A stretch of 64,000 nucleotides of DNA, taken from positions 31,706,012 to 31,770,011 of the forward strand of contig CP154954.1 of NCBI GenBank assembly GCA_039621445.1. Reading direction: 5' to 3'. Of the stretch, positions 4,773 to 63,230 are shown one piece after another. The DNA is from Euglena gracilis. Its lineage: Eukaryota. Made by a program: the position numbers and the translations under genes. Numbering within the stretch: the stretch's first letter is position 1; each line of letters starts with the position of its first letter. The notes beneath the pieces were generated by a model. It was not told where the DNA came from. It did not search any database and worked only from the letters and a program-made list of their open reading frames with translations.

Positions 4773-4947
4773 TGAACGGCCACAATGGCCTGATTGGGTT
4801 CTGAGTCGCCGTGTCCATTTAGAAAACTTGAGGGATTCTTGCGGCCTCACCCTTCACCCCTTGGGGGGTGGTGTGATTCAGAAAGGATGAGGATGGTGTC
4901 TCTAACCTTTTCTGCCCCTGCCATGTCCTGTGGGGTCCTGGTGCTGC

Positions 4948-5456: not shown

Positions 5457-6400
5457 CTCCCCCACTTTGAAAAATCTCGGGGAGATTTTGAAAAATGACA
5501 GTAAAATGAAGGGGTCCGCACGAAAGAAACAAGTTGGGGGGACACATTCACCCGTGGTTTGTGTTGCGGGTGGTCAGTAAGCGTAATATTCAAATAACTT
5601 TCGAGTGTCGAAGGAGAACAGCGACGGGGGTGGGGGCGGTTCGAGGGGCACGCTTACCACGCGACGTGTGGCACGGTGCGGCGCACGGTGCAACGGTGCG
5701 GGCCACGGTGGCGGTCAGCCGCGTGCGTCACCTCCGCATCACCAACGGGCGGAAAGGCTTTAGAGGCCCCGTACCACCCCCACAACCAGTGTTGCGGGTC
5801 TCCTCCATGGTATCTCCTCGGTGAAGGTCCGCGTATGTGTAAGTCGTGAGGTGTTGCAATGTAGCTGGGGGTCGAAAAAACAAACGGGGGGGTGTAATAG
5901 GATATGTCGTTTCACAGCCCGTCTTGCCAAGGGTTGCTTTGCAAATCGAAAGGTGCACGGCAAGCGATAACAAGCTCAAATGCACACTCTCACCTTTCTG
6001 ATTTTGGTCCTTTTGGTGTCTTTCGGGACCTTCTCAATTTTTTTTTTGAGGGTTCTTTTTTGTGTCGTTTCTTAGAACCAAACCTCTTTTGTGGTTTACC
6101 TTCTTTTTTGTTGTTGCAACTTTTGTTTTGCTTTCCACCTCTTAACCCAACCGTTCGAACCTTTTATTGATTTCCTTTGTGTGTGTTCGTGTGTCTCTCG
6201 ACCTGTTACCCGCTGCAGACGACTACCAAAAATCAAAAGATCGAAAAGGAAAGCGACCCCGCAACCCACGGGACCGATTCCCCACGAAACTTGGCGCCTT
6301 GAAAAAAACTGAAAAAATCTGAGAAATGGAGAAGACCCCTGACTTCCTCAAACGGAACCTCCCCGAATTCTCTTTTTGAAATACACCACGAGGTCGATAT

Positions 6401-9360
6401 TCAAATTTGCCTCCTCGGCGTAAACAAACAATTCTCGGGCGTAACGATGGAAAAAATGCCCGATGGGTTCCCAAGGTAATCCCATTCATCCCAACCCTTC
6501 CATTTCACAAGAAATTGCCATTGTCCATTTGCACCTTTTCCATGTGAAATAATTTTTTCCACAACATATTCTCCGGGGGTAGCTTCTACGTCCTCGGTTT
6601 CGCTTTGGCAAAAATTCAATGGTAGGGTTTGTCCAACGAATTTGTCTTCCGCATGCAATTTCAATTGTGTGATGTGCACGCTTTGCATTACACCAGGTTT
6701 AACCTCGATCTGGTATGAACCTTGACCCAAACGTCGTTTAACCTCACAAGGACCCAACCAACGCCTTTTCAAATTTGCTTGCAAATTGGATGGACACAAA
6801 CACCAAACTTTCTGCCCAATGTCCAAAATTGGTTTTTCAGCCCTTTGAGAATTCAAATCCTCAAAACGTTGTAAATGAAGGGAGTTTAATTTTTCAGCAA
6901 TTTTTGAATCCAAGTCGGACATTATTTTGGAAAAATCTGAAGCTTCCTCCGCTTCGCGAGGAATGGGAAAAGGAAAACCAGCCGATGGCATGCTTCGTGC
7001 AAAAACAATTTCATAGAGGGATAAGTCACTTGGCCCAGGGATGTTACGAAATTTCCTCCTCACCAATGGCAAAATTTCAACCCACTTTGTGTCCATCTCG
7101 TCGCAAACTTTCCGAAGCCATGTTTTGAACTCCTTTCCTTGCACCTGCGCCCTACGGTTCGCTTGATGGTGATACGATTGCTCCTTTGCGCTACGTATTC
7201 CCATGCAACCGCACATCGTGAGCCACCATGCCCCTGAATATCGGAGGCCTTGGTCACTCGGGATGACAGTTTGCAAGCCAAATAAATCCAACCACCGATT
7301 AAACATTTCCTTAGCCACCGCCTTAGCAGTACACTCTTTTCTCCTATGTGGTGTTGCTATTGTCCAACCCCTTAGGCGATCTACAAATTTCGGACGGGGC
7401 ATATTAAAGAGGTCGATCGAAACACTTGACCCCAAAAATGGTGGTATGATGGTGGGACGCAAAGGCCCCTTCAAATAAAAACGTGGGGGGCTGTGCGCTT
7501 GACAAATTTCGCTCGTTTTAGAAACCAACAAAGGTATTTCTTTTGCCCCCACCAAGGGTGAAAAATGAAAATGTTTTGTCTAGCCTTTCCCCACAAACGT
7601 GTCCCATGTGGGCGTGGTGCTCCCGGACAAAAGGTCCAGTTATACTGGCGGGTACACAAAAGTCCTTGGAAAAATAGTCGGTTGTCCAAAATTTGAAAAT
7701 TTTCAGGCCAATTTTCCGAATGCGGTTTATGTACCTCCTCCTAAATATCGTTAAAATACGCACACCGTGCATACAAAGTGGACACATCCCGGAGCATAAC
7801 AGCTTTCTTGGACAAATTTTCGTCCTCCCCCCCTTGATTTTCTGGGCTATCAATGGGAACTTGCTGCCCGGGAAGGTTTTTCGTCTCCCCCCCTTCCTCC
7901 ACTTCATTGCCCGTGGTATCCACAAGGGAGATAATTTTTTCCAACACCGAAATCTTCCTGGAAAAATCAAAATCAACAACTGCACCGTTTTTGTGCAAGC
8001 GAACAAACATGCAAGCTCGTTCCATTTTTTTCTCGTTTTCCAAAATTTCAGCCCTTTACCTTTCATCCTCCTCCGACCCATGCCATGAAACGTCTGCAAA
8101 ACTTTGTGATGCGGGGTAAGCCAACCTTGTCATACAATTTGCGGGTAGCTGTTGCTTACCGGGTATATACGCTACGTTTAGCAAAAATTTGCTGAGTTTT
8201 TGGTGCCACCGTGCCCTTCGGCTTGCCACCCTGCCCATTTTCGAAGGCCGGATGCGACCACATATGCCTCCTTATCACGAATATCCCAGGTTTTTTCTTG
8301 GGGGGGGGTCAGTTTCCGTGACACGAATGCCACGGGAACCGTTTTCCCTTCCATGGAATTTTCCTTGCTTAATTCCACCTCACCTACGGGAAGTTGTTCC
8401 AACACCGCACCAATGGACCTACCCGATGCATCCACATTCAAAATAAAAGGTCGGTCGGGGTCAACAACTTGTAACGACAATCCCTTAACCACCACTTTTT
8501 TTGTTTCCTCAAAAGATCTCCTACTTTCATCGTCCCACTTAACCGGGACTTTGGAACCGGCCTTGCCATCCCCACGACCAACCCGAAGTTTGACTTGAAG
8601 GGGGGCTGCCAACTCAGAAAAATTTTCAATGTAGGAACAATAATGGTTGGCAAAATCACAAAACGCACGAAGACCGGTTGTAGTTTGGGGTAGATCCCGT
8701 TTTTCCACGGCCAAAAATTTGCCGGGGGGAGGTTTTCTCAGGCCTTCTTTCAAAGTGTGGCCCAAAAACTCAACCTCCTTTTGGAAAAATTTGCACTTCG
8801 AAAATCTGGCTACCCATTGTTTTTTCACGAAGTAAGTCCAAAATGGTGCGAATTTCAAAATCGTGTCTTCTCAAAAGTTGTTCCGTACCCAAAATTTCTT
8901 GGGGGGTGGCAATGAGAATATCGTCGATATAACCATCGGCGATTTCTAGTGCGGGGGCAAGTGTCGCTTCCAAATTCCTTTGAAAATATTGCACACCATT
9001 TTTCCAACCAGTTACAACCACATTGCACCGATCCTTGGGGGGTGTAAGTGACGGTAATTTGCCTTGAATCGGGACGGAGGGGGATTTGATGAAAAGCATC
9101 CACCAAATCGATTGTTGAAAATTTTTTTTTTTGCCTTGCCCAATCAAAGGCTCCTCCACCCGGTGTAAATGGTATGCATCCTCCATGCATTGGGAATTCA
9201 TGTAGCGGGCATGAACCACCCCCCTCCGTCTTTTGTGTAAGGGGGCTATCGGGGGTACATGCGGTTTTTTCACGGGAAACGAGGGCATACCCCATGGATC
9301 CTCACAAGGCTCTACCTTACCTTGCCTTAACCATTCCGTGGTTATTGCCTTCATTGCATC
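6401..9360 (-). pseudogene. pol: Duplicated Gypsy pol 3' half: RT, RNase H, integrase, chromodomain (frameshifted)
   Basis: GYIDDILI (RT); RPFILNVDASGRSIGAVLEQ and PVAFVSRKL (RNase H); SVSIDLF and IPSDQG (integrase); YVVEKIISH..QFLVKWKGW (chromodomain). Confidence 0.9.
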
Positions 9361-9408
9361 CTCTAAACGTTTCTGCCCCTGCCATGTCCTGTGGGGTCCT
9401 GGTGCTGC

Positions 9409-9917
9409 TGAAAAACCTTCTTGGTTGGAAATTTCTTTGGATCCTCGGCCTCGGCTGTTTTTTGAGGGGGCTGCCGGCCTTCGAAGTCAAAATCATCAAG
9501 TTTTGCTTTATTTTTTGCTCTTGAGCTTTTCAAAATCAAACTTCATTCATTTTTTGTCAAATTCAGGTTCTTCCAAGCACAATCAATTGATGTTTTTTTG
9601 TGGTCTTCACCAGTACATTGTATGGACAATGAACCCTGTGTGTGAGATAGGGTTTGATACTGCGGAGTTCGATTGGGGCTGTGCTTAACTAGGAATTTGC
9701 TCTGTTCCTACCGACCGGAAAAATTCGGCCGACTGATCCAGGAAATCTCGCCAGTTAAGGCCGGCAAGGCCAAAATAGAGGTTCAGGCTTCAAAGGCCTA
9801 CCAACAGAACCTTTTCCAATCTTTTAATTCGACTGAAATCCAAAAAAGGGAATTTAGGTGATTTTTCAAGCCCCAGGACTAATTTAGGTCAAATTGTTGG
9901 TTAAGGACCCCTTAACA
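9409..9917 (-). repeat. Gypsy 3' LTR
   Basis: TG..CA ends; PPT immediately internal; homologous to the 5' LTR but visibly diverged, including a short indel near GGGTTTGATA. Confidence 0.87.
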
Positions 9918-10851
9918 CTCCCCCACTTTGAAAAATCTCGGGGAGATTTTGAAAAATGACAGTAAAATGAAGGGGTCCGCACGAAAGAAACAAGTTGGGG
10001 GGACACATTCACCCGTGGTTTGTGTTGCGGGTGGTCAGTAAGCGTAATATTCAAATAACTTTCGAGTGTCGAAGGAGAACAGCGACGGGGGTGGGGGCGG
10101 TTCGAGGGGCACGCCTACCACGCGACGTGTGGCACGGTGCGGCGCACGGTGCAACGGTGCGGGCAACGGTGGCGGTCATCCGCGTGCGTCACCGCCGCAT
10201 CACCAACAGGCGGAAAGGCTTTAGAGGCCCCGTACCACCCCCACAACCAGTGTTGCGGGTCTCCTCCATGGTATCTCCTCGGTGAAGGTCCGCGTATGTG
10301 TAAGTCGTGAGGTGTTGCAATGTAGCTGGGGGTCGAAAAAACAAACGGGGGGGTGTAATAGGATATGTCGTTTCACAGCCCGTCTTGCCAAGGGTTGCTT
10401 TGCAAATCGAAAGGTGCACGGCAAGCAATAACAAGCTCAAATGCACACTCTCACCTTTCTGATTTTGGTCCTTTTGGTGTCTTTCGGGACCTTCTCAATT
10501 TTTTTTTTGAGGGTTCTTTTTTGTGTCGTTTCTTAGAACCAAACCTCTTTTGTGGTTTACCTTCTTTTTTGTTGTTGCAACTTTTGTTTTGCTTTCCACC
10601 TCTTCACCCAACCGTTCGAACCTTTTATTGATTTCCTTTGTGTGTGTTCGTGTGTCTCTCGACCTGTTACCCGCTGCAGACGACTACCAAAAATCAAAAG
10701 ATCGAAAAGGAAAGCGACCCCGCACCGATTCCCCACGAAACTTGGCGCCTTGAAAAAAACTGAAAAAATCTGAGAAATGGAGAAGACCCCTGACTTCCTC
10801 AAACGGAACCTCCCCGAATTCTCTTTTTGAAATACACCACGAGGTCGATAT

Positions 10852-12080
10852 TCAAATTTGCCTCCTCGGCGTAAACAAACAATTCTCGGGCGTAACGATG
10901 GAAAAAATGCCCGATGGGTTCCCAAGGTAATCCCATTCATCCCAACCCTTCCATTTCACAAGAAATTGCCATTGTCCATTTGCACCTTTTCCATGTGAAA
11001 TAATTTTTTCCACAACATATTCTCCGGGGGTAGCTTCTACGTCCTCGGTTTCGCTTTGGCAAAAATTCAATGGTAGGGTTTGTCCAACGAATTTGTCTTC
11101 CGCATGCAATTTCAATTGTGTGATGTGCACGCTTTGCATTACACCAGGTTTAACCTCGATCTGGTATGAACCTTGACCCAAACGTCGTTTAACCTCACAA
11201 GGACCCAACCAACGCCTTTTCAAATTTGCTTGCAAATTGGATGGACACAAACACCAAACTTTCTGCCCAATGTCCAAAATTGGTTTTTCAGCCCTTTGAG
11301 AATTCAAATCCTCAAAACGTTGTAAATGAAGGGAGTTTAATTTTTCAGCAATTTTTGAATCCAAGTCGGACATTATTTTGGAAAAATCTGAAGCTTCCTC
11401 CGCTTCGCGAGGAATGGGAAAAGGAAAACCAGCCGATGGCATGCTTCGTGCAAAAACAATTTCATAGAGGGATAAGTCACTTGGCCCAGGGATGTTACGA
11501 AATTTCCTCCTCACCAATGGCAAAATTTCAACCCACTTTGTGTCCATCTCGTCGCAAACTTTCCGAAGCCATGTTTTGAACTCCTTTCCTTGCACCTGCG
11601 CCCTACGGTTCGCTTGATGGTGATACGATTGCTCCTTTGCGCTACGTATTCCCATGCAACCGCACATCGTGAGCCACCATGCCCCTGAATATCGGAGGCC
11701 TTGGTCACTCGGGATGACAGTTTGCAAGCCAAATAAATCCAACCACCGATTAAACATTTCCTTAGCCACCGCCTTAGCAGTACACTCTTTTCTCCTATGT
11801 GGTGTTGCTATTGTCCAACCCCTTAGGCGATCTACAAATTTCAGACGGGGCATATTAAAGAGGTCGATCGAAACACTTGACCCCAAAAATGGTGGTATGA
11901 TGGTGGGACGCAAAGGCCCCTTCAAATAAAAACGTGGGGGGCTGTGCGCTTGACAAATTTCGCTCGTTTTAGAAACCAACAAAGGTATTTCTTTTGCCCC
12001 CACCAAGGGTGAAAAATGAAAATGTTTTTTCTAGCCTTTCCCCACAAACGTGTCCCATGTGGGCGTGGTGCTCCCGGACA
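10852..12080 (-). pseudogene. pol: Integrase with C-terminal chromodomain
   Basis: HHAHMGH...EICQ zinc-finger remnant; SIDLF and SDQG acidic motifs; WLGPCEV (GPY/F-like); chromodomain YVVEKIISHGKGANGQWQFLVKWKGW continuing as ITWEP after a frameshift. Confidence 0.9.
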
Positions 12081-12509
12081 AAAGGTCCAGTTATACTGGC
12101 GGGTACACACAAAAGTCCTTGGAAAAATAGTCGGTTGTCCAAAATTTGAAAATTTTCAGGCCAATTTTCCGAATGCGGTTTATGTACCTCCTCCTAAATA
12201 TCGTTAAAATACGCACACCGTGCATACAAAGTGGACACATCCCGGAGCATAACAGCTTTCTTGGACAAATTTTCGTCCTCCCCCCCTTGATTTTCTGGGC
12301 TATCAAGGGGAACTTGCTGCCCGGGAAGGTTTTTCGTCTCCCCCCCTTCCTCCACTTCATTGCCCGTGGTATCCACGAGGGAGATGATTTTTTCCAACAC
12401 CGAAATCTTCCTGGAAAAATCAAAATCAACAACTTCACCGTTTTTGTGCAAGCGAACAAACATGCAAGCTCGTTCCATTTTTTTCTCGTTTTCCAAAATT
12501 TCAGCCCTT

Positions 12510-13871
12510 TACCTTTCATCCTCCTCCGACCCATGCCATGAAACGTCCGCAAAACTTTGTGATGCGGGGTAAGCCAACCTTGTCATACAATTTGCGGGTA
12601 GCTGTTGCTTACCGGGTATATACGCTACGTTTAGCAAAAATTTGCTGAGTTTTTGGTGCCACCGTGCCCTTCGGCTTGCCACCCTGCCCATTTTCGACGG
12701 CCGGATGCGACCACATATGCCTCCTTATCACGAATATCCCAGGTTTTTTCTTGGGGGGGGGTCAGTTTCCGTGACACGAATGCCACGGGAACCGTTTTCC
12801 CTTCCATGGAATTTTCCTTGCTTAATTCCACCTCACCTACGGGAAGTTGTTCCAACACCGCACCAATGGACCTACCCGATGCATCCACATTCAAAATAAA
12901 AGGTCGGTCGGGGTCAACAACTTGTAACGACAATCCCTTAACCACCACTTTTTTTTGTTTCCTCAAAAGATCTCCTACTTTCATCGTCCCACTTAACCGG
13001 GACTTTGGAACCGGCCTTGCCATCCCCACGACCAACCCGAAGTTTGACTTGAAGGGGGGCTGCCAACTCAGAAAAATTTTCAATGTAGGAACAATAATGG
13101 TTGGCAAAATCACAAAACGCACGAAGACCGGTTGTAGTTTGGGGTAGATCCCGTTTTTCCACGGCCAAAAATTTGCCGGGGGAAGGTTTTCTCAGGCCTT
13201 CTTTCAAAGTGTGGCCCAAAAACTCAACCTCCTTTTGGAAAAATTTGCACTTCGAAAATCTGGCTACCCATTGTTTTTTCACGAAGTAAGTCCAAAATGG
13301 TGCGAATTTCAAAATCGTGTCTTCTCAAAAGTTGTTCCGTACCCAAAATTTCTTGGGGGGTAGCAATGAGAATATCGTCGATATAACCATCGGCGATTTC
13401 TAGTGCGGGGGCAAGTGTCGCTTCCAAATTCCTTTGACAATATTGCACACCATTTTTCCAACCAGTTACAACCACATTGCACCGATCCTTGGGGGGTGTA
13501 AGTGACGGTAATTTGCCTTGAATCGGGACGGAGGGGGATTTGATGAAAAGCATCCACCAAATCGATTGTTGAAAAAAATTTTTTTTGCCTTGCCCAATCA
13601 AAGGCTCCTCCACCCGGTGTAAATGGTATGCATCCTCCATGCATTGGGAATTCATGTAGCGGGCATGAACCACCCCCCTCCGTCTTTTGTGTAAGGGGGC
13701 TATCGGGGGTACATGCGGTTTTTTCACGGGAAACGAGGGCATACCCCATGGATCCTCACAAGGCTCTACCTTACCTTGCCTTAACCATTCCGTGGTTATT
13801 GCCTTCATTGCATCCAACCTTTCACCCATGAGTTGCATCGGTCTTTGCTTTTTTGGTTGTGTCCCCGGTTT
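12510..13871 (-). pseudogene. pol: Reverse transcriptase and RNase H (frameshifted); N-terminal part continues at 15173-15390 beyond an insertion
   Basis: FSTIDLVDAFHQIPL, GYIDDILIAT, KCKFFQKEVEFLGH, VDASGRSIGAVL, YIPGK. PPVRGPHCEARIF(L)KPGTQP is split by the insertion. Confidence 0.9.
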
Positions 13872-15172
13872 ATATACAAAAATCGACCGACACTAACAAT
13901 TCCCGCAGGGGAGCCGGGCGGCTCCCTTCGCTCGCTCGCGCCCGGCGCTCCTGCTGAATCTGTGAGTGTCGGTCGATTTTTCTAAAACCTATTTTGTCTG
14001 GGCCCTAGGCCTGTCTTGATATTCATTCGACCGAACCGCCTGGACAGAAATATGGCCAAAAAAGTGGTTTTGGCCCATTATCGGGCTCCTGAATGGAAAT
14101 CGACTGACATAAACGGCGCCTGAATGGATATCGACCGACATAAACGGGGGCCTGAATGGAAATGGAAAACGACCGACATAAAGGGGCGGCTGAATGGAAC
14201 TCGACTGACATAAACGGGCGCCTGATTGGAAATCGACTGACGTAAACGGTTTCCGATGTCTTGGAAATCGACCAACCTTTTGTTTCCTTTTTTTGAATGC
14301 GTTTTTGTTCCGTTTTGGGACATTGTCAGTTTCAGCCTGAAACCCGTTAATGTCGACCAACATTTTGTCTCTTTTTTCAGAATGCTTTTTTTCTTTTTTC
14401 AATCTCTATATCAAAAACTGTGTCTTAAACGCAGACTCTGACCTGGGTCTGCGTCTCGAAACGCAGACTCAGGCCGAATAACAGACTCAGCGTTTCGAAA
14501 CACAGACTCAGGCCAGAGTCTGCGTGTTTTTTAGAAACACAGATTTTAACCAAAGCCATGTTGCTATGAACACAGCCTTGGCCCGAAATCCGATGATGTC
14601 AGTATAATTGCAATACAGGCGTCGAGCCCAGAAAGTAGGTTTGACATTGACAAATCACGCCTCACCCGAAAGCTTTTCTTTCAGATGACCAGTGATGACA
14701 ACTGGTTCAGGACAAATTTGTCGAATGCTTTTTCTGAAGGTCCAGAAAGAAAACAATCTTAAGAACCGTCCTTCCGTCTGTTCCATCCAAAGTTCAGTCA
14801 GCTGTGATCACCTGGCCACAAAATTTGGTTTTTGTCTGATCCATAACTCCTCCACAACCCCATAGGACCAAAAATGTCGAAAAAAAGGGAAATTCAAAAT
14901 GTCCAAAAAGTCACTAAAAATTCCCGATCTGACCAGCAACAGATTTCAGTGGAATGGAAATTGACCGACATAAACGGGCGCCTGAAGGGAAGTCGACCGA
15001 CATATACGGGCGCCTGAATGGAAATCGACTGACGTAAACGGGCGCATGAATGGAAAGCGACCGACATAAACGGGTGCCTGAGTGGAAATCGACCGACATA
15101 AACAATTTCAGCCCGAAATCCGTTAATTTCAGTAGAATTTCAAGACCGGCGTCGGGCCCAAAAAATGGGGTT
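13872..15172. mobile_element. Non-coding 1.3-kb insertion in pol with a terminal hairpin and two arrays of 32-bp repeats
   Basis: Removing it rejoins ARIFLKPG in frame. Hairpin AAAATCGACCGACACT...AGTGTCGGTCGATTTT at ~13878-13980; TGAATGGAAATCGACCGACATAAACGGGCGCC arrays at ~14090-14250 and ~14950-15103. Confidence 0.8.
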
Positions 15173-15779
15173 TAAAAAAATACGGGCCTCACAATGCGGT
15201 CCTCTCACGGGGGGGTTGGGCTTCACCTCATCCCCAAAAACCAAATCTTTGTAATCTTCAAAAATCTTTTGGCGCAACTCATCGACCAAAGGTTGGAACT
15301 CCCCCCACTCACGCGGCTCCGAGTGAGTGGAAATTAGCCGGATTTATTTAGTTCCACCTTCAACCGATTTCTTTAACCGTTCACACACCTCCATTCATTC
15401 CTCCTCACTTAGTTCCTCGCTTTTCTCTCCAACAAAACTTGGAACGTGAAACTGAAATTTTTCCACCTCCTGCACTTGCCCAACTGAAATTTCGTGTATT
15501 GAATCAAACCAGTCGGATTTTGTGCCTTGGAAAAAATCAGCAAGCTGAAAACGTTCGTCGATAGGCCGTCGAACCCATTTTTTCTTCCCTTTCTTTGAAC
15601 GGTGGGAAGAGTCTTGCACAAATCCCTCTTTTCTCACCTTTCGTGAATTTTTCTTGGAAAATCTTTCGATGTTGAACCGGGGGGTAGTGTCTATGATATC
15701 CGTTTCAACCCTCCCCTCAGGTTCCTCTTCAATCAAAAAATGAGCAACGTCAATTTCCTTCCAAGGCAAAGTCCGTATG

Positions 15780-16180
15780 TACCGCACTCCGTCGTTGTCG
15801 GCAAAAAGTCCATTTTCGTGGGGCAACACTCCCAATTTATTTTTCCACATCCATGGATACCCCAAAATCAGGTCAACGTGAATTTCTGCCTCGTGCAAAA
15901 TTCCACAAATTTCCAGGGGGTATTTTCTGTAGTCCCCTTTTTTCGAGCCAAAAAATTCAATTTTAGCTCCAACTCATGCTCCCCACCCGGTAAGGAATCG
16001 CTTTTCACGGTGACCAACCTCAAAGGTTCTTTTGCGGGGAAAATTTGTTTGAGCACCCGTGTCAGCCAAAGCCTTCAAAATTTTGTGTGAACCATCGGGT
16101 GCCGTAACATGAACCGACATCACCGATTGCGTTCGACCTGATTTTTTGTATAATTGACCCATTTCTGAAACTTTCACCGT
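15780..16180 (-). pseudogene. pol: Retropepsin-type aspartic protease
   Basis: LKALADTGAQTN (DTG triad) and the downstream VDLILGYPW motif. Confidence 0.85.
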
Positions 16181-16184
16181 TGTA

Positions 16185-16930
16185 CCAAAAGAAACATTCA
16201 TCGTTTGGGTGGAAACAATTATGGAGTGACGCTAAACCAGAAATATCGAGTCCCTGAAAAATTGGTCAAACGTTTGGTGCAAGGGAAACGTTTGGAGGAG
16301 AAGCACTTTCCAAAGGGGAAGGGTTCGGTGTTGACCCCCCAGGGTACCCCCTCACTGACGACCAATGACCGACATGCACGAAAAAGAAATACTTCTAGAC
16401 CCGAAGCAACTTAACTCACACCAAAACCCGGACACAAACGGTTTGCAACCCCTCCACCCGGACACAAACGGTTTGCAACCCCTCCACCGTTCCCCAAATA
16501 CGGGTGGGCTTTTTGTAGCCCCAAGGGCCAAATTGGCAATAATCAGCATCCAAAAAATACAGCACTTACATAAATTCACGGTCCTTCAAAAGGCCGTTTC
16601 GGGGATTTTCAATGTACCATTTGGGGGGTTGTAGAAAATTGATGATGGAAAGTGTCCTTTTTGCAAGATAATCGGCATACTCCAAATTCCTTTCACGTGT
16701 GGTGAGACTTTGGCTATATTCCGTACAAGGAACGGAGGCGAAAATCAAGTCCACGTCCTCTTTTTTTGAGAAATTTTTCCAAAGGCCATGTCAAAATGTC
16801 GGCCAAAATGTGGGGCTTTGCACGGAGGTTCACATCTAGTGTCAAAACATCAAACCCACATTTTTCAAGCGTTTTGGCCACAGATTTTGTTCCCAAAAAT
16901 AAGTCCAAAGCCTTTGGCTTCTTGGATGAC
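16185..16930 (-). pseudogene. C5 cytosine DNA methyltransferase domain inside the retrotransposon (frameshift, stop, inverted C-terminus)
   Basis: Motif I ALDLFLGTKS, II TLDVN, III ADIL, IV FASVPCTEYS (catalytic PC), VI YIENP, VIII-like DYCQFGPWGYKKPTRIWG. The C-terminal HRLGG..QKYRVPEKLV block lies on the opposite strand. Confidence 0.88.
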
Positions 16931-17039
16931 AAAAAGTTTTTGACTTTTTCCATGGAAATGTTTGACGGTAGCACATAATTTTTCTGCGACAAGTTTTGCG
17001 TGGGGGGCACTTGGCCAGGAGTGCCGCCCCTCAGGCACT

Positions 17040-20000
17040 CCCGGCCCCCCTAACACGAGAGGGACCCACCCTTGGCCCCTTTTCCTTTTCGTCCTTTGTC
17101 ACCACCCTCGCCTTGGCCATTGAAATTCTGCCACCCTTTTCCTCCAAAACTGCCTTTGCCACCCCCCTTGCCGCGTCCTCCCCACCATTGGGCTTGGGGC
17201 TCAAAATTTTGTGTGGGGGGTCCTTGATTTGCATCCGGCAATTTTGCCTAGCACTTAGCGGCAATATGCCCCAACTTACCACAACGTTCACACGGTGCTT
17301 TGATTACACCTTCATTGCTTTTAGTTGTGGGGGTGGGGGTATGGAGTGGTGCTTCTTCCAATTTTTGTATGGAAACGGGGGTATTCAAAATTTTTACTTT
17401 GTCCCCCCTGTCCTTTTTCGTTTGAAAATTTGCAGGAAAATTCTCATTTTCCGTTCCCGTGGGAACTTCTGTCGCCCTCATCCATTGGGGGGTTTGATTC
17501 TGTTCCGGGGGGGGAACCACGCCGCTTAAATTGAAGGGCTTTCTCCTTTTGCGTGAGCAATTTGTGCATCATTCCCATGATTTCCGTGAGGGGTAGTTGA
17601 AAATCTTTGGGGGAAACTTGCAATTTTTGCCCATTTGACAAATTTCGTCCATTGAGTGAAAGAAGCAAGTTTTTTCTCCCTTGCCGACCCAATCGTCACC
17701 TCAAAATGCGTCCCCAAAAACACTACGGAGACAAAATGTAACATGGCTCCCTCCAACGCACTCACCAAAATTCCTTGCAATTGGTGGGGATCCACCAAGG
17801 GCAAATTTCTTACCTCCACCACGTTAAAAAAAAACTTCCCGGTTCTTATTCCCTGACAATTTCCTCGTTGTAAAGTCTGGGAATATCCCGTCTTAGAACC
17901 CGATGCGCGTCGGCGTCGGTCACATCTTTTGCAAAATTTCTCAACATGAGAAAATCTGTCTCAAAACTTTTCCAATCCTCCCTAGTTAGGTTGCTTTTGC
18001 TTGAGGCGGATTTCTTCCAATTTTTGGCTTGCACAATTTCGTGCCCCACTGCAATTTTTTTTCCCAACAAGTCCCAAGCTTGTTAAAAGTTTGTGATCAT
18101 TCCCGTCCCCCTTAAGAGCCTCAAACGGTCTCATCGGTTTCATTTACGGAGGAAATCAAAAGTGACAAGAGGTCTTGGTCGTCGGTTGGACCTCTGGAAC
18201 GTCTTTGCACATATTCTTTCCATCGAAAGCGAAAATCAGGCCAATCTTCGGTGTGGCCAGAAAAATTTTCGAGTTTTGCCTCTTTTGCCACCATGGCACT
18301 CAAGGGGGATCTAACAAAAATTGGATTTTGGCTTCCAAAATTGGTGCCTCTTCCCCCCCCCCCATCCCCACCTCCACCCCAATGGGCAAAATTTGCACCG
18401 GAACAACAACGGTCGGACATTTTTGGGTTGATTCGACGGGAAAGCCCAACACGTTGATGGTGGGGGGCATATGAAAGGGGTACTTTCTGTACGGGGGGTG
18501 CTTGAACACCGGGGGGACCCACTTGTGCGGGGCCGTGGGAATCCGAATTCTGGGTGTGGGGGGTAAAAACGGGTGTTGGTTGGGTCACAGGAACGTGCAG
18601 AGTGTGGCTTTGCCAACAGGGGGTAGAGCCCACCTTATGGTGCTCCTCCCATTTGTGCAAGACCTCCACTCCGGCATGTTGCCCGAAAAAGCCGCTCCCC
18701 TACCTCCGGGCCTAGGTTGCCCGAGTAGGGAGCGACGGGGGGGGATGTTTTGAAAATATTCTAAAACCAACCCACTCACCTCTCGAGAGGGGATTGAGAG
18801 GGTATTGGTTCCCTTCTACCCAAATAGCCAAAATCCAACCCATAGCTGGTGCTTGGGGTTGCCGTGTTGTTGACCTTTCCGATCCTGTTGAGGCCTCCCG
18901 CACCGCCACCACAGCGGTGGGGGGAAAAGGGCCCCCGGACACCGCGAGAGCGGCGGTGCCGGGGTTGGGGGTCTCCCTCCTCATTGGTGGTGTATTTGGA
19001 TTTTGCCCCCGTGGACCATCCAAATTCATGGCTTGGGAAGGGGGGGAGGCTTGTCCACAGGGACCCCCTGCCCCAAAACCTTGGGAGAAAAATCGTTCAC
19101 CCACGTTTTGCATCTCAAAACGACAATTTTTTTGCTCAAGTCCAAAAATGTGAGCGGAAACACATTTTTGAAAATCCTCAACCCTGGACAAAATGGTACC
19201 AAAGGCTTTTTGACTTGCGTTTTCCAAACCAAAAGCTTGACGTTTCACTCCAAAAAGTTCTTGCCGTTTCTCATTTTCATCACGAGAAATCTTTTGGTGA
19301 ATTTGTGCCAAAATCTGATCTTGGTGCTCAAGTGAGCTTTCCAGGTTTTGAATGCGGGGGGGCAAAGTCCATTTTCTTTTCTGGTCATTCCACCCGCATT
19401 TTTTTGATCAATTTCCAACTCCATTGCGGCAATTTGTCCTATAGCCACTTCTATTTGTTCCTCAAAGTTTTGAATCCTCCCAGAAATTTGGTCAAAAAAC
19501 TTTTAATAAAGTTTCCTTTCATTCTTGACCAACTCCACATGTTTATTTAACATTCCTGAAATGATTTCTTGTCTTCCCTCAAGAAAATTAAGTCTTTCTT
19601 CAATTTTCCAGTATCCGTCCCAAGGATCCGCATCACCCCCCCTCCTCCTCCATTGGCTCGGGGGGGGGGGACTTGTGAATTTTCAGCCGGGGAGCTCTCG
19701 TGCATGGGTGTCCCACTTTCCAAAAATTGAGAATGATCATCACCCCCGCCCGTTTCTTGGGAGGGAATCGGGGAAATTTCAATCTTTGGGGGGACTCCAC
19801 ATCTCTCCAACCCACGGGATTGTGGATTTTCCATGGGCGTGGGAAAATTTTGCCCTTCCAAAACTTGCAATGGGGCAGCCAAGGTTTGAACACCGCCAAT
19901 CATGGGGGGGAAATCACCACCACCGCCAGGGATCCTTGGTTGAGATTGCTGAAGTATGAAAAAAATCTTCTGGTAATTGTCCCCTGAAAATTTTTCTTCC
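17040..20000 (-). pseudogene. gag: gag-like region with CCHC zinc knuckle and Gly/Lys-rich tail (fragmented)
   Basis: CERCGKLGHIAAKC (C-X2-C-X4-H-X4-C, ~17251-17292); LENFSGHTEDWPDFRFRWKEY gag-like block; GKGGGKG tail; lies between PBS and pol. Confidence 0.75.
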
Positions 20001-20581
20001 TTCTTCTTTTTGCAACTCCCCCCTCAAACTGTCAGTAAGTTTGGTAAGGCGACGTAATTCATTTTCCACAGAAAATTCGCCTTGTGTGATTTATGGTTTT
20101 TTTTTGCACTTTTTCCGGCACACACGTCCCAAACCATGAGGAAATTCTTTTTTCCACGAAATAGTGGAAGAGGAAGATTCTGATTCTGCTTCAAATTCTC
20201 GGGGGGGGTCTACTTCTTTTCGGGTTCTTTTCAGGTGGTTTTTCTTCGGGGGGTGTGCAGACATGCAGGCATGGGGGGGGTTGGTTTGCTGTCGTGTGTG
20301 GTGTCCGCTTGGTGATGTTCGCCAGCTGCATCAATACGGTGCCCCCCTCACCAGCTGCAGCTGCCAATAAAAACAATGTTCTTGATTCTTCTGTGTCTTT
20401 TTCTTTTTGATTTTCAAACTTCACCATTGCATCTTCTCCATTTGGGAATGCCATCGATGGCATGAGGGGGCCCATGGGCACCACCTCGGGGGGCCTGATG
20501 GCACCACCCCTTCAACTTCTTGATGTTCTTGCTCTTCTTCTTCTTGGCCAGGCCAAGCCTCCCCCGGGCCTTGGCCAGAGG

Positions 20582-20599
20582 ATCCGGGTAGGACCTCCA
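20582..20599 (-). promoter_or_regulatory. Primer-binding site, probably tRNA-Gln
   Basis: Minus-strand TGGAGGTCCTACCCGGAT directly follows the LTR CA; its complement ...GGTAGGACCT-CCA fits the 3' acceptor arm of eukaryotic tRNA-Gln. Confidence 0.7.
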
Positions 20600-21104
20600 T
20601 GAAAACCCTTTATTGGTTCGAAATTCATTCGGATCATTGGCCTCGGCTGTTTTTTGAGGGGGCTGCCGGCCTTCGAAGTAAAAATCTTCAAGTGTTTCGT
20701 TTTTTTTTTTTGATCTTGAGCTTTCCATATCAACCTTCAAATTGATTTTTTTTGTCAAATTCAGGTTCTTCCAAGCACAAACAATTTATTTTTTGTTTGT
20801 AGTCTTCACCAGTACATTGTATGGACAAAGAACCCTGTGTGTGAGATAGGGTTTGATATTTGGGGCTGTGCTTAACTAGGAATTTGCTCTGTTCCTACCG
20901 ACCGGAAAACTTCGGCCGACTGATCCAGGAAATTTCGCCAGTTAAGGCCGGCAAGGCCAAAATAGGGGTTCATGCTTCAAAGGCCTACCCACAGAACATT
21001 TTCCGAACTTTTAATTCGACTGAAATCCAAAAATGGGAATTTCAGTGATTTTCCAAGCCCCAGGACCAATTTAGGTAAAATTGTTGGTTAAGGACCACTT
21101 AACA
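20600..21104 (-). repeat. Gypsy 5' LTR (505 bp)
   Basis: TG..CA ends; homology to the 3' LTRs starts exactly at TGAAAA; PBS adjacent. Confidence 0.87.
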
Positions 21105-23676
21105 CTGGTTGCCACCTTGGCCTTTGTTCCGGCGATTTTTGGTGATGTAGATGCCTTCATGGCTGGTTGTCCAGTCATGGCCTTTGTTTCCTTGGCCTGT
21201 GCAGTTTTGGCAGCCATAGCTCACAGAATGTGTTCTTTGGATTGTTGTCCCTTGGTCCCAATGGGCGTAGTGGGCTGCTGGCCGTTCTGCCTCTTACGGG
21301 GCCTCCTGACCACTGACTGCCAGGGTCCGTGGCCATCACTTTTGGGCGGTTTGGGTTGTGGAAGTTTCTTTTGGGGCAATTTTCATTTAGTGAAGGGGCG
21401 GCCGCGGTGCATGCCGCGACCCATGCCTTCAGGTTGTCAAGCTGCTGCTGCTGCTGCTGCTCCGTCTTGAAGCTCTCCAGCGCTTCTCGTCTTGCAAATA
21501 GCATCTGCCATTGAAAATTTTCTGAAGCTTCAGCAGTATCTGCTCTGGCGTTCTGCAGAGCGTCTTTTTCCGTATAATTCGAAATGATTGAGGGACTTCT
21601 GCTCTTGTAATGGACAAGGCACTTGGCGTTCCTCTCTGACCATTCGGGCTCCACACTGCGAGATGGTGAGGTCCTGCTTTCCTTGCCGGGTGTTCTGTTC
21701 TGGTGTGTTTGTGCGTATGCGGGGGGTGCTTCTTACTGCTTTTTGTTGCCTGAGTTGGCTGATTCCTAATTCTGCCCTTCGACTACAAGGAGAAATAATT
21801 TTAACTCAACGAGTTCCACACAGTTCACTACAGCGACCTATCAATACAGCGGACGAAGAGCAATCCAGACGATAACGAAAAGCGGAGGAAGAAAATTTTG
21901 ATTTCCTGAAAGATGCAACATACCTGGTGTCCAGCGGCCCGACAGAGCAACAAAGAACCCCTGCGAAGGCAGCAGAAGCTGGAGAAGATGGAGTTCCAGC
22001 AGGCGCCGGAGCAACCCACATGGAACCAAGCTGTCATGCAGCATTACAACGAGTTTCAAGGCAGAAACCTGAAGGGGAGAAGAGTGGAGGAGGAGGAGGA
22101 GGAGCAGGAGCTGGAGACGCTGACGGAGCAGGAGCGGAGCACCAGTCCGTGGCCGTCCCCTCCCCACCTTCCAATTTCCCGGAAAGATTTTAATTCCGTC
22201 AGTTCGACGACGGCCATGGACCCTGGACATTGGTGGCCAGAAAGTCGAGGAGACAAATACACCAGCAGCACACAGCCCAGAGGGAGAGAACTGGGCAGAC
22301 AGGTCTGGAAGACTACCCTCCGGTTTCCACATCGCCACCCCCTCACCCAGGGGGAACGTTCCAAGGGGAAATGGACTGCATCAAGGGCATGACCACCCTT
22401 TTCAACAAGGCTATGACAGCCATTATTATCAAGGGCATGGAGCCCAACTGCAAGGCTATGGAAGCCCGAAGCAAGTGCTGCAAACTTGCTCCAGGGGAAA
22501 GGTTGGTCCAACTTACCCCACAGCTCTCTCAAACATGAACCCCTCAGGAGCTGCCCATTAATGCAGCAAGCAGCCCCCCTTTCGGGGACAGAAGGCCAAT
22601 GGAGGCCATTGTATTCAAAAGCAAGAGGCCAATGGGGGCCAGTGGAGGAATCAAGACGCCAAGGCCAGTGCAGGCCATTTCAATCAAAATCAGGAGGCCA
22701 TTGGGGGCCAATATATGATTCAAGATCACCACATCAACCCTTGGGGGGGAGGCCCAAGATTGGCTGCAACAGGGCCCCCCCAGAAGATAATCAGCCCAGA
22801 CACCCCAGCTTTATATGTACCTCCCACTGCAGACACAGACCTTCCCCCATCATTCAAAAACACGGGGAAAGCCTGTCTTTGGAAAGCCCTATGGCAGGGC
22901 CAGCTGCAGCCCCAGTGATGGGGCAGCCAGGGGGCAGGACCCCAGTGATGGGGCCTGTGGAATCCCCAGACACATTACATCCAGGGGTACCCCCTCATAG
23001 GGCCCTGCGGGCCAGCATTCCTCACTGGATCAAGGCAGGAGCCAGCAGAGAGGTATTAAACCTGATAAGGGAGGGGGTTATGGCAGATCTTCCCCTCCCT
23101 ACCCCCAGATAACCTTAAAAGTTCCCTTCAAAACCCCCCAAGAAATAATGACTGCCCAAAAAAATTCTGACAGAATGCGAATGTGCAGGGGCAACCAGGC
23201 AAATTCCCCCAGAGGAGGCAAAACATTTTGTCCCTTACTTCATCATTTCCAAAAAAAGAGGGGGAAAAGACAAAAGGAAAGACAAATTTCAGGCTGTCGA
23301 CAGTTAAATCTCCATTTCACCCAACAGAAGTTCAGACTGGAGCACATGGGGAACATCTTCCCATATTTAAGAAAAGGTTGGTGTTGTTGAAAAATCGATC
23401 TGAAAGAATCTTATTTACATCTGCAGCTGCACAGCAGATTAGAAAAATATGTTTGCATGCAGCTTGTGGCATTGGACATGTCCCTACGCATTCTGCAATA
23501 AAGCCTGGCGCAAATGTCAGCGCGCGCGCAGGCACACTTTTTTTTGTAAAAAATTCTGGTTGTTTGCTTTGCAGGCAATCAGCGTACAACTTTGTCCATG
23601 TTTACCTCCAAGTCTGGTGCAAATGGGATTGCGTGCAGTGGAAGTTACAAGTTATAATATTTTATGAAGAAAAACT

Positions 23677-24681
23677 GTGAAGAAAAAGGGAGATTTTTTT
23701 GAGAAGCCCAGCCCCAGCAAAAGGGCAAGAGCCCTTTTTACACAAAGTTGTATGAGTGTTGCCCATGGAGAAGGACGTGGCCAAGGTGGCGCTGCGCCGG
23801 AGACCTCAGACTGTGTTATGCATGCCAGAGATGGCCATGGGGGTCATGCCAGGAATGGCCATGGGGGCCATGCCAGGAATGGCCATGGGGGCCATGCCGC
23901 AGATGGCCATTGGGGCCATGGCACGGATGGCCATGGGGGTCATGCCGCAGATGGCCATTGGGGCCATGCTACAGATGGCCATGGGGGCCATGGTGCTGAT
24001 GCACATTCCCGTGCACGCCATCGACGAGTGGTGAAGTTGGATGGTGCTGATGCACCTGATGGCCATGGTGATTGTGGACATTCCCAGGAGTGGCATGCAG
24101 GTGAGGATGGTGATGGTGGTGGTGGCCATGGTGGCCAGAGAGATGCCCAGATGTGGCATGGGGCTGAGGGGGATGCTGCAGATGACCAAGTCCGACATGC
24201 CAGTGGAGTCCATGATGCCCGAGGTGGTGATGCCCCTGGTGGACAAGTGTCGACAGCCCTGAAGAACGACGTGAGGCTGAGGCTGCAGCTGGAGAAGGAC
24301 ATCCCCATCCTGGTGCTGTCGCCGGAGGAGTTGGTGCTGCTGCTGTTCCGAGATGCGGACGTGGCCGGCAACCTCCTCCAGTACGGGCAGCTGGACGTGG
24401 CGATGCTGATCCCCAACGTCAACGAGATGAAGACGAGGAAGATGTGGGAGGACCTCCAGCCCCATGTGACAAAGCGGTATTACTATCAGCCGAAGTGGTT
24501 TTCTGGACCGCTTTACAGCCCAACGGGGTACTGGGCCCTGAAGCTGGACTTGAGGACGAGACGAGAGGAGAGAGATGAGTGGATGGAGATTGAGGAAGAT
24601 GGGACAGCCAGATGGAAGACGCCGTCGTCCCGAAGGAGATGGCGAAGGCGGCTGCAGGCCAAAGGGGTCCAGGGCCAGTGA
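23677..24681 (+). CDS. Internal ORF of the small LTR element: His/Gly repeat N-terminus plus unknown C-terminal domain
   Basis: 334-codon open frame. The N-terminal half derives from a GGCCATGGGGGCCAT minisatellite; the C-terminal half looks protein-like (IP..W..L...YYY..W..WALKLD). Confidence 0.35.
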   Translation: MKKKGDFFEKPSPSKRARALFTQSCMSVAHGEGRGQGGAAPETSDCVMHARDGHGGHARNGHGGHARNGHGGHAADGHWGHGTDGHGGHAADGHWGHATDGHGGHGADAHSRARHRRVVKLDGADAPDGHGDCGHSQEWHAGEDGDGGGGHGGQRDAQMWHGAEGDAADDQVRHASGVHDARGGDAPGGQVSTALKNDVRLRLQLEKDIPILVLSPEELVLLLFRDADVAGNLLQYGQLDVAMLIPNVNEMKTRKMWEDLQPHVTKRYYYQPKWFSGPLYSPTGYWALKLDLRTRREERDEWMEIEEDGTARWKTPSSRRRWRRRLQAKGVQGQ

Positions 24682-25154
24682 GGCTCCTGGAGGATGCCCT
24701 GGCCTGGCATGTACGTGGCTGCAATGTCCACTGCCTGTGCTGGCTCCCTGGTGGGATGCCTCGATGTGGCATGTACGCTGCTGCCATGTCCACAGCCTGT
24801 GCCGGCTCCCTGGTGGGATGCCCCGGTGTGGCATGTGCAATTATGATATAATGGTGGACTGGACCTGCAGACTGAACCCCGAACCCCATCAGAGTGTGCC
24901 CTCGCTTTCTGCTGTCGCCCCCCCCGGCGAAGAGTTGGGTGGTAAGGCGGCGTTCGGGTGAAGAACTCGAGCTTTGGGTGGAAGAGGGATCCGAATTAGA
25001 ATTTGATTTCACAGAGAATTGCGAGAATCGTGATTAAAATGCAATTTTTATTTTGGGAAGATTTGCGAGAATCGTGGTTGTGAATGATTTTCGGGGGTGG
25101 GTGCGAGGAGTGTTGGCTCCAGAGGGATGCCCCACCCGACCTTTTTGAAGGTGG

Positions 25155-25445
25155 AGGGGAGAGTTGGCTCACGAGTTGATGCCCCCCCCCCCTTGGAGAA
25201 GGGTGGAGGGGAGAGATGGCTCACGAGTTGATGCCCCCCCCTGTCCAAGAGAGTGGTGGGGAGAGTTGGCTCACGAGTTGATGCCCCCCCCCCCCCTGTG
25301 CAAGGGAGGTGGGGAGAGATGGCTCACGAGTTGATGCCCCACCCCCCCTGAGAAAGAAGTGGGGAGAGTTGGCTCACGAGGTGATGCCCCCACCACGAGA
25401 CAGAGGTGAGGGAGAGTGGCTCACGAGTTGATGCCCCCCCCCCCC
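25155..25445 (+). repeat. Six ~50-bp units with constant core GGCTCACGAGTTGATGCCCC and variable linkers
   Basis: Directly visible; degenerate units near 25110 and 25490; repeated at ~37555-37840. Confidence 0.85.
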
Positions 25446-26907
25446 TGTTTGAGATTCGGTGGCACCCAGTTCGCCAAGTTGGGGTTGGGAGAGTTCGGCT
25501 CTTTCGAGATGCCCCCCCCCCCCTGTGAAGGACAAGTCCAATGGCCAAGGGAGTCAAGTATGGAGACTGGGTCTCCTTTTGGGAAGGGGAGTGTGGCATT
25601 GGACATGTCCCTACGCATTCTGCAATTAAGCCTGGCGCAAATGTCAGCGCGCGCGCAGGCACACTTTTTTTTGTAAAAAATTCTGGTTGTTTGCTTTGCA
25701 GGCAATCAGCGTACAACTTTGTCCATGTTTACCTCCAAGTCTGGTGCAAATGGGATTGCGTGCAGTGGAAGTTACAAGTTATAAGATTTTATGAAGAAAT
25801 ACACTGTGAAGAAAAAGGGAGATTTTTTTGAGAAGCCCAGCCCCAGCAAAAGGGCAAGAGCCCTTTTTACAAGCTGGGGGGAGAAACCTGGCAGTTTCAA
25901 GCTGCATGCTTTGGCACAAGCAGCCTGACACAGAAATTTATGACTCTCATGAGAGTCTGGGAAGGAAAATGGAGAAAGGAAGGAAAGGTAGTTTTCATCT
26001 ACCTGGACGAAATTTTGCTGTTAGCCCCCAGCAAAAAGACAGCAGCCCAACATTTGGCAGAAATGAGAACAGACCTTTAACTGGCAGGTTTCAGATTAAA
26101 CCTCCCCAAATCCTGTCTGGAACCCACACAGGAGATAAAACATCTGGGCCAGTGGATCAATTTGAAAAATGGAAAACTGGCAATTCCTCAGGAAAAACTC
26201 AAATCCTTGAGAAGGGAGCTAGGCAAAGTGCTCACAACACAAAAAATGAGCTGCAGAAACCTCAGTTCTATTGTGGGGCAAATCAGAAGCTATTTAGTAT
26301 CAATGCCATTTCTACGAATTCTTACAGACCAACTTTGCAAAATGGTGGAGCTACACACCAAGTGGGGTTGGGACCACACCCTGACCATTCCACAAGGGGT
26401 CAAGGATCAGATTGTGGAAATAAAGGAAATTTTACAGCCAGGTGTGGGCAGGGCATTTCAATCCCATGCTTCACAGGAACTGTTCTCAGACAGCAGCACC
26501 TGGCAGTGGGGGGGGGGGGGCTGGACAAAAAGTCAGGTCAAAAAACCAAAATTTCTGGAGGGACCTGCATGTCCCTCACATCAATAAAAAATAATTGATG
26601 TCTGCAGTGGAAACTGTAAAGGCTTTAGCAAAACCAAAACAAACCATTGTTCTTCATGTGGACAACCAGGTGGCAGTAAGTTATTTAACAAAATGAGGAG
26701 GCAAAAAGCCATACCTAAACTCCATCCTAAAACCCCTTCTGTACCATTGCCAAGAAAAGCAAATCAATTTGCAGGTGGTTTGGGTTCCCACCCAGGAGCA
26801 ATTGGTAGGCTCCCTGACCAGGGAGCAAAAAGATCCAGGGGATTATACCGTAAACATAAACATTTTTCACCAGATTCTGAAATTTATCAAAACACATCAC
26901 CCCAAAG

Positions 26908-42382: not shown

Positions 42383-63230
<20,848 letters not shown>

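Follow-up and report, generated by a model that had tools for sequence, protein, structure and literature searches.

The element and its methyltransferase domain

Retrotransposons that carry their own DNA methylase reverse the usual picture, in which the host silences the transposon. Here we describe what is quite probably a member of this class in Euglena gracilis, within a 64,000-nucleotide stretch of contig CP154954.1 (GenBank assembly GCA_039621445.1, positions 31,706,012 to 31,770,011); this whole stretch is referred to as the window, and coordinates are counted from its first letter. The minus strand of the window contains a Ty3/gypsy long terminal repeat (LTR) element of chromovirus type, approximately 11.7 kb in length (about 9409-21104), and between its gag zinc knuckle and its protease lies a compact C5 cytosine methyltransferase (hereafter methylase) of about 200 amino acids (aa). 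We consider it very likely that the locus is a decayed copy of an element whose Gag-Pol carries a compact, virus-type methylase between the zinc knuckle and the protease.

A sequence-only reading of the window had listed a series of C5 methyltransferase motifs, and all of them are present on the minus strand, divided between two frames that we call piece A (16771-17019) and piece B (16486-16757). Piece B, with an X in place of its in-frame TAA, was searched with phmmer against 1.84 billion representatives (clusters at 50% identity), returning 1299 matches at E ≤ 1e-3, 515 at E ≤ 1e-10 and three at E ≤ 1e-30; the best shows 75% identity (E 2.8e-34), and on these scores the similarity is far above chance. 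Piece A alone has no Pfam match. In an alignment of 22 relatives, the F and first G of motif I, the catalytic C of motif IV and the E, N and P of motif VI are invariant, and the P of motif IV is at least 90% conserved. Across 21 polyproteins the same F and G, both the P and C of motif IV, and the E and P of motif VI are invariant. The window keeps these residues in DLFLGTKS (motif I), ASVPCTEYS (motif IV) and IENP (motif VI), and the family further shows DYCQFxxWGYxKPTRIW and a C-terminal KYRxPxxL helix.

Structural comparison was based on the AlphaFold model of a relative, P0007 (predicted local distance difference test score, pLDDT, 90.4). Foldseek matched this model to DIM-2, its best PDB fold match, and to DNMT3A/B, DNMT1 and M.HaeIII, at probability 1.0 with query template-modelling (TM) scores of 0.45-0.56 and 11-19% identity. 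A PDB profile search with the methylase family matched DNMT1 only over the N-terminal half (E 5e-5) and found no DNMT3 at E ≤ 0.01, which together with the low identity of the fold matches places the window enzyme outside the eukaryotic Dnmt3 family. The methylase is a true member of the C5 methyltransferase fold, and the residues of motifs I, IV and VI are kept in the family.

The remainder of the element has the layout of a chromovirus (Table 1), and the order protease (PR), reverse transcriptase (RT), RNase H (RH) and integrase (IN) is supported by tblastn collinearity with two metagenome polyproteins, P0159 and P0095. The chromodomain (~10936-11019; Chromo E 3.9e-5, 23.9 bits) falls just below the Pfam cut-off of 25.1, and that of the collinear P0159 scores 36 bits, above the cut-off. 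The upstream gag open reading frames (ORFs) have no Pfam match. The linker between gag and methylase is bounded by in-frame TAG codons at 17248-17250 and 17050-17052. No DAM domain was found in the window element, which the DAM+DNMT protein P0008 matches only by its C5 part (tblastn).

The sequence-only reading had pronounced this copy dead through a frameshift, a TAA stop and an inversion, and each of these three lesions can be located in the sequence; no enzyme can be made from the window copy. The C-terminal part of the methylase (HRLGG..KYRVPEKLVKRLV) is read on the plus strand at 16187-16375, and tblastn with the collinear P0159 aligns its aa 199-266 there (E 1e-7) and the remainder on the minus strand. 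In addition, two in-frame TAG codons separate the zinc knuckle, linker and methylase from one another, and the protease and RNase H are interrupted by TGA, TAA and TAG.

Table 1. Features of the element, in the order of its reading direction (window coordinates)
Feature	Position	Strand	Evidence
5' LTR, TG...CA ends	20600-21104	minus	self-BLAST and LTR alignment
Primer-binding-site-like TGGAGGTCC... (TGGAGG...)	~20581-20599	minus	directly after 5' LTR
gag region, split into several ORFs	17248-20599	minus	ORF list
gag CCHC zinc knuckle	~17251-17295	minus	zf-CCHC E 0.0019, 18.7 bits, under cut-off 20.8
Gly/Lys-rich linker, in frame with gag and methylase	17050-17250	minus	translation of 16714-17568
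Methylase N-part (piece A): DLFLGTKS (motif I), TLDVN, ADIL	16771-17019	minus	translation; tblastn P0159 aa 2-77
Frame break in A-run	16761-16767	minus	translation, ORF list
Methylase core (piece B): ASVPCTEYS (motif IV), IENP (motif VI), DYCQFG..KKPTRIW	16486-16757	minus	
In-frame TAA in methylase core	16566-16568	minus	translation
Exact 30-bp tandem duplication, adjoining inversion breakpoint	16426-16485		repeat search
Inverted segment, 233 bp, encodes methylase C-terminus HRLGGNNYGVTLNQKYRVPEKLVKRLV	16182-16414	plus	translation, alignment, tblastn
Aspartic protease region (ALADTGAQ), stops TGA, TGA, TAA	15167-16129	minus	tblastn P0159 aa 337-609
Insertion, repetitive non-element sequence, 1.27 kb	13893-15166		collinearity gap against P0159, P0095, P0041
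Reverse transcriptase and RNase H, frameshifted	12679-13892	minus	tblastn; RT_RNaseH E 5e-11
RNase H-integrase linker, integrase, SH3-like, chromodomain	10832-12688	minus	tblastn
Purine-rich tract AAAGTGGGGGAG	just before 3' LTR	minus	LTR alignment
3' LTR, TG...CA ends	about 9409-9919	minus	self-BLAST and LTR alignment

The methylase is a family trait of chromovirus polyproteins

Intact relatives show the same arrangement in uninterrupted form, and the design recurs in a large family of such elements from aquatic microbes. P0159 (1667 aa) encodes DNMT-PR-RT-RH-IN-SH3-chromo in one open frame, and P0095 (2513 aa) consists of an N-terminal region followed by DNMT-PR-RT-RH-IN-chromo; both come from metagenomes and both are collinear with the window, bearing out the proposal that a gypsy or chromovirus-type element carries the methylase between gag and protease in its polyprotein. 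A domain scan of the 55 relatives of at least 500 aa placed the methylase next to PR, RT, RH, IN or the chromodomain in 53, with DAM beside it in 19 of the 55. When the search was limited to proteins of 509-1621 aa, 44 matched the methylase at E ≤ 1e-10, most of them annotated in the database with RT, RNase H, integrase or chromodomain families, and 13 with Dam. Families of LINE endonucleases and tyrosine recombinases were absent from the 12 Pfam families found in 50 relatives.

The position of the methylase within pol is variable. From the domain scan, together with Pfam on four metagenome loci, it can stand ahead of PR, as in the window, in the interval from PR to RT, between RNase H and integrase (L001, P0195 and P0187), or behind the chromodomain (P0205 and P0206). 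The methylase between RNase H and integrase (L001 1-4467; P0195; P0187) looks catalytically intact. For 21 polyproteins with both domains, the median pairwise identity is 43.3% for the methylase and 49.5% for RT (210 pairs, r 0.76); the methylase has diverged little faster than RT, the two domains changing in parallel, and by this comparison it is under constraint.

One database entry of the family is filed under a carnivorous plant: P0188 (NCBI hypothetical protein M569_12700, partial [Genlisea aurea]) is a DAM-PR-DNMT fragment of this protist-type family, and may be a contaminant from trap-dwelling protists or the product of transfer.

Other copies in sequencing runs of the same organism

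Logan contigs from two DNA runs of low coverage that carry the same organism label (X1 and X2) were aligned to 15200-19400 of the window in 30 bins. A total of 5154 contigs aligned from X1 and 2281 from X2, and all 30 bins were covered. Summed depth in X1 was 55k-92k in the methylase bins, ~22k-61k in most gag bins and 42k-77k in the protease bins; summed contig depth is not copy number, and what it shows is a methylase region no less repeated than its flanks. The sequence-only reading had named a one-off insertion, with other copies of the family lacking the domain, as the finding that would overturn it, and coverage of the methylase as deep as that of gag and protease speaks against it. X1 contigs range in likeness to the window from more than 99% (874 contigs) to less than 90% (713 contigs).

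The same contigs bear on two of the lesions. One letter fewer at 16761 is found in 10 X1 and three X2 contigs. Positions 16181 and 16414 are joined on opposite strands in two contigs of X1, two contigs of X2 and one RNA read, and therefore other copies carry the segment 16182-16414 in the other orientation and the inversion is private to the window copy.

Standalone relatives on viral contigs

The methylase family also includes free-standing genes. A metagenome scan found at least 554 relatives among 600 matched stretches, and 80 loci were kept. Pol is present in only four of these (L001-L004); the other 76 are standalone ORFs of ~205-245 aa on mostly low-GC, densely coding contigs. Against a hidden Markov model (HMM) built from 16 relatives of the window methylase, five with pol domains shown, the standalone ORFs score 136-244 bits (186-244 for those of full length). 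Enzymes of cultured phages score lower against the same model, four at 20-46 bits and that of Bacillus phage Bcp1 at 85 bits. The standalone viral genes are 29-45% identical to the methylase of the transposable elements (TEs) over the whole 200 aa, and the compact size and a C-terminal Cys/His region are common to both forms.

Several lines of evidence connect the standalone genes with viruses. The best BFVD match of the P0007 model is a putative cytosine DNA methyltransferase of Tetraselmis virus 1 (A0A2P0VN45, 218 aa; 34% identity, TM 0.79/0.83, E 1e-19). Of the 474 stretches matched in IMG/VR, 381 code for relatives, and the 80 contig names kept from there include four giant-virus metagenome-assembled genomes. 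On L155, a contig of 102 kb, a kinase with a 2C_adapt domain and an RNA polymerase subunit of Rpb1 type are encoded close to the methylase gene, and L091 has a D5-like primase-helicase. An Atlas search with the methylase returned only viral clusters of ~213-288 aa, of which the few with a known phylum are Uroviricota. The standalone relatives are thus viral: some certainly lie on contigs that have genes of giant-virus type, and others are unclassified. The suggestion that the compact enzyme is closer to viral types than to DNMT1 or DNMT3 therefore holds, since its nearest standalone relatives are viral, and DNMT1, DNMT3, DIM-2 and M.HaeIII match at the level of fold only.

Other genes on the virus-like contigs gave few leads. 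Among ten large ORFs, Pfam found no family in eight and uninformative families in two (Gly_rich_2; Collagen, YadA_stalk, Mtd_N), and ten large ORFs, eight of them shared with the Pfam set, matched no PHROG at E ≤ 1e-5. PF04451 had no match in the one IMG/VR record searched. A protein of ~590 aa is homologous (40-49% identity) across L042, L018, L057 and L075, contigs of ~13-22 kb, near the standalone methylase. On L042 (10001-14299) the methylase is followed by a Pox_A32-like ATPase, which matches weakly (E 0.008, below the cut-off), then by a 307-aa ORF and the ~590-aa protein, an order that may resemble that of virophages or polinton-like viruses. A PDB search with a profile of the ~590-aa protein had no match at E ≤ 1. 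In the Atlas this protein matched clusters of viruses; Nucleocytoviricota is the most frequent phylum in two of the three top clusters, and seven of 30 matches have Capsid_NCLDV, which are leads only. On L087 (12706-13674), an N6/N4 DNA methylase (PF01555, E 1e-23) is situated ~2 kb from the compact C5 methylase.

Phylogenetic placement

A careful, unrooted tree of 87 rows, with 26 environmental loci and eight standalone proteins picked by hand, placed 49 of 52 TE-linked methylases on one side of a branch with support 99/88. The window groups with P0159 and P0196 (99/98), and polyproteins with DAM and DNMT are placed inside the window's clade. The TE clade has standalone sequences as its successive neighbours (98/92, 98/86). 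Three rows fall elsewhere, together with phage Bcp1 (96/94): P0205 and P0206, which are of Cymbomonas type, and P0207. The free tree suggested two independent captures, which we do not claim since a single TE clade was not rejected by the approximately unbiased (AU) test (p 0.15).

A quick tree of 132 rows, for which 26 rows at least 75% identical were dropped beforehand, also separated the standalone environmental rows from the TE-type rows, by a branch with support 97. Proteins of unknown context that have at least 40 aa of flank beside the methylase made up 40 of 51 on the TE side of this tree and two of 18 on the viral side.

Surroundings of the element in the window

The element copy is situated amid duplications, as seen by self-BLAST. 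Positions 4900-9361 and 9361-13815 form a head-to-tail duplication of 4.46 kb at 99.1% identity, which contains the RT-RH-IN-chromo-3' LTR part of the element and 48 bp of flank. A second 3' LTR at ~4948-5458 is due to this duplication, which could reflect unequal exchange or an assembly artefact. On the other side of the methylase, 17720-30113 and 30115-43575 form a tandem segmental duplication of ~12.4 kb at 99.3-99.7% identity, beginning inside gag and including the 5' LTR and upstream flank, with an extra 1062 bp at 40888-41950 in the second unit. Just outside this duplication lies the methylase, of which the window has one copy.

The insertion between protease and RT (13893-15166) contains internal repeats of ~90-165 bp (14082-14276 and 14952-15109, 81-86% identity) and ORFs with reiterated peptide motifs, and has no match to the element's relatives. 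A long ORF at 23668-24681 (copy at 36069-37076) consists of reiterated His/Gly-rich units (HGGHARNGHGGHA...) and overlaps an equally long ORF on the opposite strand. Ten other long non-element ORFs of the window, a set that excludes this one, have no Pfam family. Rfam found no match within the 64-kb window, and the spliced-leader motifs of dinoflagellates and Euglena gave 0 matches at ≤3 mismatches in the window.

Interpretation

The evidence points to a standalone viral methylase gene that would have been captured by a chromovirus-like element and would then have moved within pol, where it is now seen on either side of PR, between RH and IN, or behind the chromodomain, frequently beside DAM. 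As it lies inside Gag-Pol, the methylase would be packed into virus-like particles and could be freed there by the protease. Once freed, it could methylate the element's new cDNA or its fresh insertions, as de Mendoza et al. (2018) proposed for their elements in the article's main text. In a host with widespread CpG methylation, new copies could by this means resemble resident DNA, or their expression could be tuned. The observed/expected ratio of CpG is 0.58 outside the element and 0.64 window-wide, with an excess of TG/CA, a depletion that fits a methylated host and proves nothing.

A broader account goes further than the locus itself, and we regard it as possible without leaning towards it. 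It holds that a compact methylase of a type found in giant viruses and small virus-like elements of aquatic protists was captured by chromoviruses, perhaps once for the main clade and perhaps again for the Cymbomonas type, and founded a very large and still-constrained radiation of self-methylating LTR elements across aquatic eukaryotes, with at least four positions in pol and repeated pairing with DAM. The DAM-less gag-DNMT-PR form would be an unreported branch of that radiation, and such elements may add measurably to the host CpG methylome.

Several observations weigh against a decayed element with a captured viral methylase. On the side of the enzyme, piece B alone scores 19.5 bits against PF00145 (E 7e-4), under the cut-off of 22. 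The Pfam check that the sequence-only reading had proposed came out favourably for the family, with PF00145 matched by 34 of 50 relatives of at least 300 aa (E ≤ 1e-3; seven of the 50 belong to one 90% cluster), and gave a weak match for the window's own fragment; in the relatives the highest score is 31.4 bits and the alignment reaches only the first ~120 profile positions. Motif I of the window subgroup, P0159 and P0007 included, reads GTKS and not GTGS, the last G being replaced by K. The classical wording of motif VIII is QxRxR, with motifs IX-X following C-terminally, and motif VIII of this family differs from it. On the side of the element, the two LTRs are only 88% identical to each other (self-BLAST), and no target-site duplication was found in the LTR alignment, where the sequences flanking the two LTRs differ; for these two reasons the copy may be old or recombinant. 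The depth of the Logan contigs is no count of copies, as noted above, and RNA evidence is thin: a search of sequencing runs listed no RNA run that contains this stretch, and the raw RNA reads that aligned number 33 and 51 from ~5-6% of two runs, mostly less than 95% alike to the window. Finally, the quick tree rooted on E. coli Dcm has its root among the TE-type sequences. We rejected this rooting because the branch to Dcm is too long (4.77) to trust; nonetheless, as the careful tree is unrooted and the Dcm root falls on the TE side, the transfer may have run in the other direction, from elements to viruses.

Among the alternatives, the one that survives best accepts the domain as a retained gene of the family and assigns it a task other than methylation of the element's own cDNA. 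The enzyme might act on host chromatin and the genome-wide CpG methylome, as the main text of de Mendoza et al. (2018) proposes for Symbiodinium, might shield the cDNA against a host nuclease, or might persist as a DNA-binding pseudo-enzyme. The CpG ratios of 0.58-0.64 with the TG/CA excess fit a methylated genome and the family is highly repeated in the host DNA runs, both of which agree with such a role. The pseudo-enzyme option is disfavoured because 21 polyproteins show no variation at the catalytic Cys, at the glutamate of ENP or at the residues of motif I. Overall, we think another role unlikely, and continue to prefer an enzyme that would act on the element's own DNA.

A second alternative takes the module from a host eukaryotic DNMT, sister to DNMT4, and has viruses acquire their genes later, from elements or hosts. 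In a preprint of May 2026 (10.64898/2026.05.21.726589), the name EpiLTR is used for LTR elements of Euglena gracilis that combine a chromodomain with DAM and DNMT; its tree, as presented in the main text, places the DNMTs of the Euglena and Cymbomonas EpiLTRs sister to DNMT4. The best PDB fold match (DIM-2) and the TE-side root of the Dcm-rooted quick tree agree with a host origin. Against this, solved eukaryotic DNMTs are only 11-19% identical to the family and the PDB profile reaches only the N-terminal half of DNMT1 (E 5e-5), whereas identity to the standalone viral genes is 29-45% across all 200 aa, and these genes have the compact size and C-terminal Cys/His region in common with the TE methylase. 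Moreover, the preprint's tree, by the passages that describe it, used representative eukaryotic families. We judge a host origin distinctly improbable, and a viral donor the better explanation.

The remaining two alternatives can be given almost no credence. The heavy rearrangement near the domain in this copy (the inversion, the 30-bp duplication and the 1.27-kb insertion) would suit a one-off foreign fragment, inserted here and not a family gene, but the domain belongs to a single open frame in intact, collinear polyproteins, its coverage by DNA contigs from the same organism is as deep as that of gag and protease, and it is in frame with gag and the linker. A variant genetic code, in which TAA and TAG are sense codons and the gag-methylase frame is really open, might be read from the single frame that runs through gag, linker and methylase N-part with TAG codons as its only interruptions; yet all three stop codons interrupt the element's frames, the frameshift and inversion persist under any code, and the stops are to be read as decay because they face different residues of the relative (TAA/A, TAG/W, TAA/A and TAA/E, with two TGA in gaps).

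Comparison with known systems

To our knowledge, only three retrotransposon families with their own DNA methylase had been described before 2026. These are SymbioLINE-Dnmt, SymbioDIRS-Dnmt3 and KnitGypsy-Dnmt3, on LINE, DIRS and gypsy backbones, the last two with a Dnmt3-type enzyme according to the main text of de Mendoza et al. (2018, PMC5890265). From that description, KnitGypsy-Dnmt3 of Klebsormidium nitens resembles the window element in being a gypsy LTR element with a C5 DNMT inside its polyprotein, with catalytic residues conserved and under purifying selection, and differs from it in having a eukaryotic Dnmt3-type enzyme, in contrast to a compact viral type of ~200 aa with 11-19% identity to solved DNMT3. 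The two Symbiodinium families are likewise retrotransposon-borne C5 DNMTs, described there as present in hundreds of copies and proposed to methylate their own retrotranscribed DNA. They differ in their LINE and DIRS backbones, and the orphan SymbioLINE enzyme is set apart by its published description only.

The EpiLTRs are closer. As portrayed in the main text of the 2026 preprint they are, like the window element, Ty3/gypsy-like LTR elements with a chromodomain and a C5 DNMT in the polyprotein, and the Cymbomonas tetramitiformis EpiLTR has its DNMT at the 3' end of pol. CYMTET_19743 [Cymbomonas tetramitiformis] (P0205), with the order IN-chromo-DNMT, belongs to the same methylase family (E 1e-31 to P0017). 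Because this protein is in the family, and because DAM+DNMT polyproteins are in the window's clade, the window module is the EpiLTR module or a very close relative of it. The differences are that the window element is without DAM, that its methylase lies between gag and protease and not at the 3' end of pol, and that its nearest relatives are viral where the preprint reports a sister of DNMT4; the Euglena EpiLTRs enter this comparison by their description in the preprint only. The enzyme accordingly nests in part within an already described group of TE-borne DNMTs, through CYMTET_19743 and the DAM+DNMT polyproteins, and this weakens the novelty that the sequence-only reading had claimed for it.

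A literature search for a gypsy element with the order gag-DNMT-PR and a viral-type methylase led only to de Mendoza et al. 2018, Sarre et al. 2025, Hoguin et al. 2023 and the 2026 preprint, and passages from these do not mention such an element. Measured against those passages, the DAM-less gag-DNMT-PR form, the several positions in pol and the viral link are apparently new, and the preprint's supplementary DNMT tree may bear on the last of these. The results suggest that the EpiLTR methylase is one part of a far wider set of chromovirus polyproteins, the 515 clusters (50% identity) at E ≤ 1e-10 including standalone viral genes, that many polyproteins with this methylase are without DAM, and that the module moved between positions in pol. 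The window copy is a dead witness only, and its relatives supply natural intact sequences.

On the viral side, the putative methylase of Tetraselmis virus 1 and the 'C-5 cytosine-specific DNA methylase I' of Bacillus phage Bcp1 have a similar size (~205-220 aa), the same fold and the same motif order as the window enzyme, and differ from it in being free-standing genes on virus genomes and not domains of a retroelement polyprotein. That the nearest free-standing relatives are viral, and not host DNMTs, suggests a concrete hypothesis for the donor of the module.

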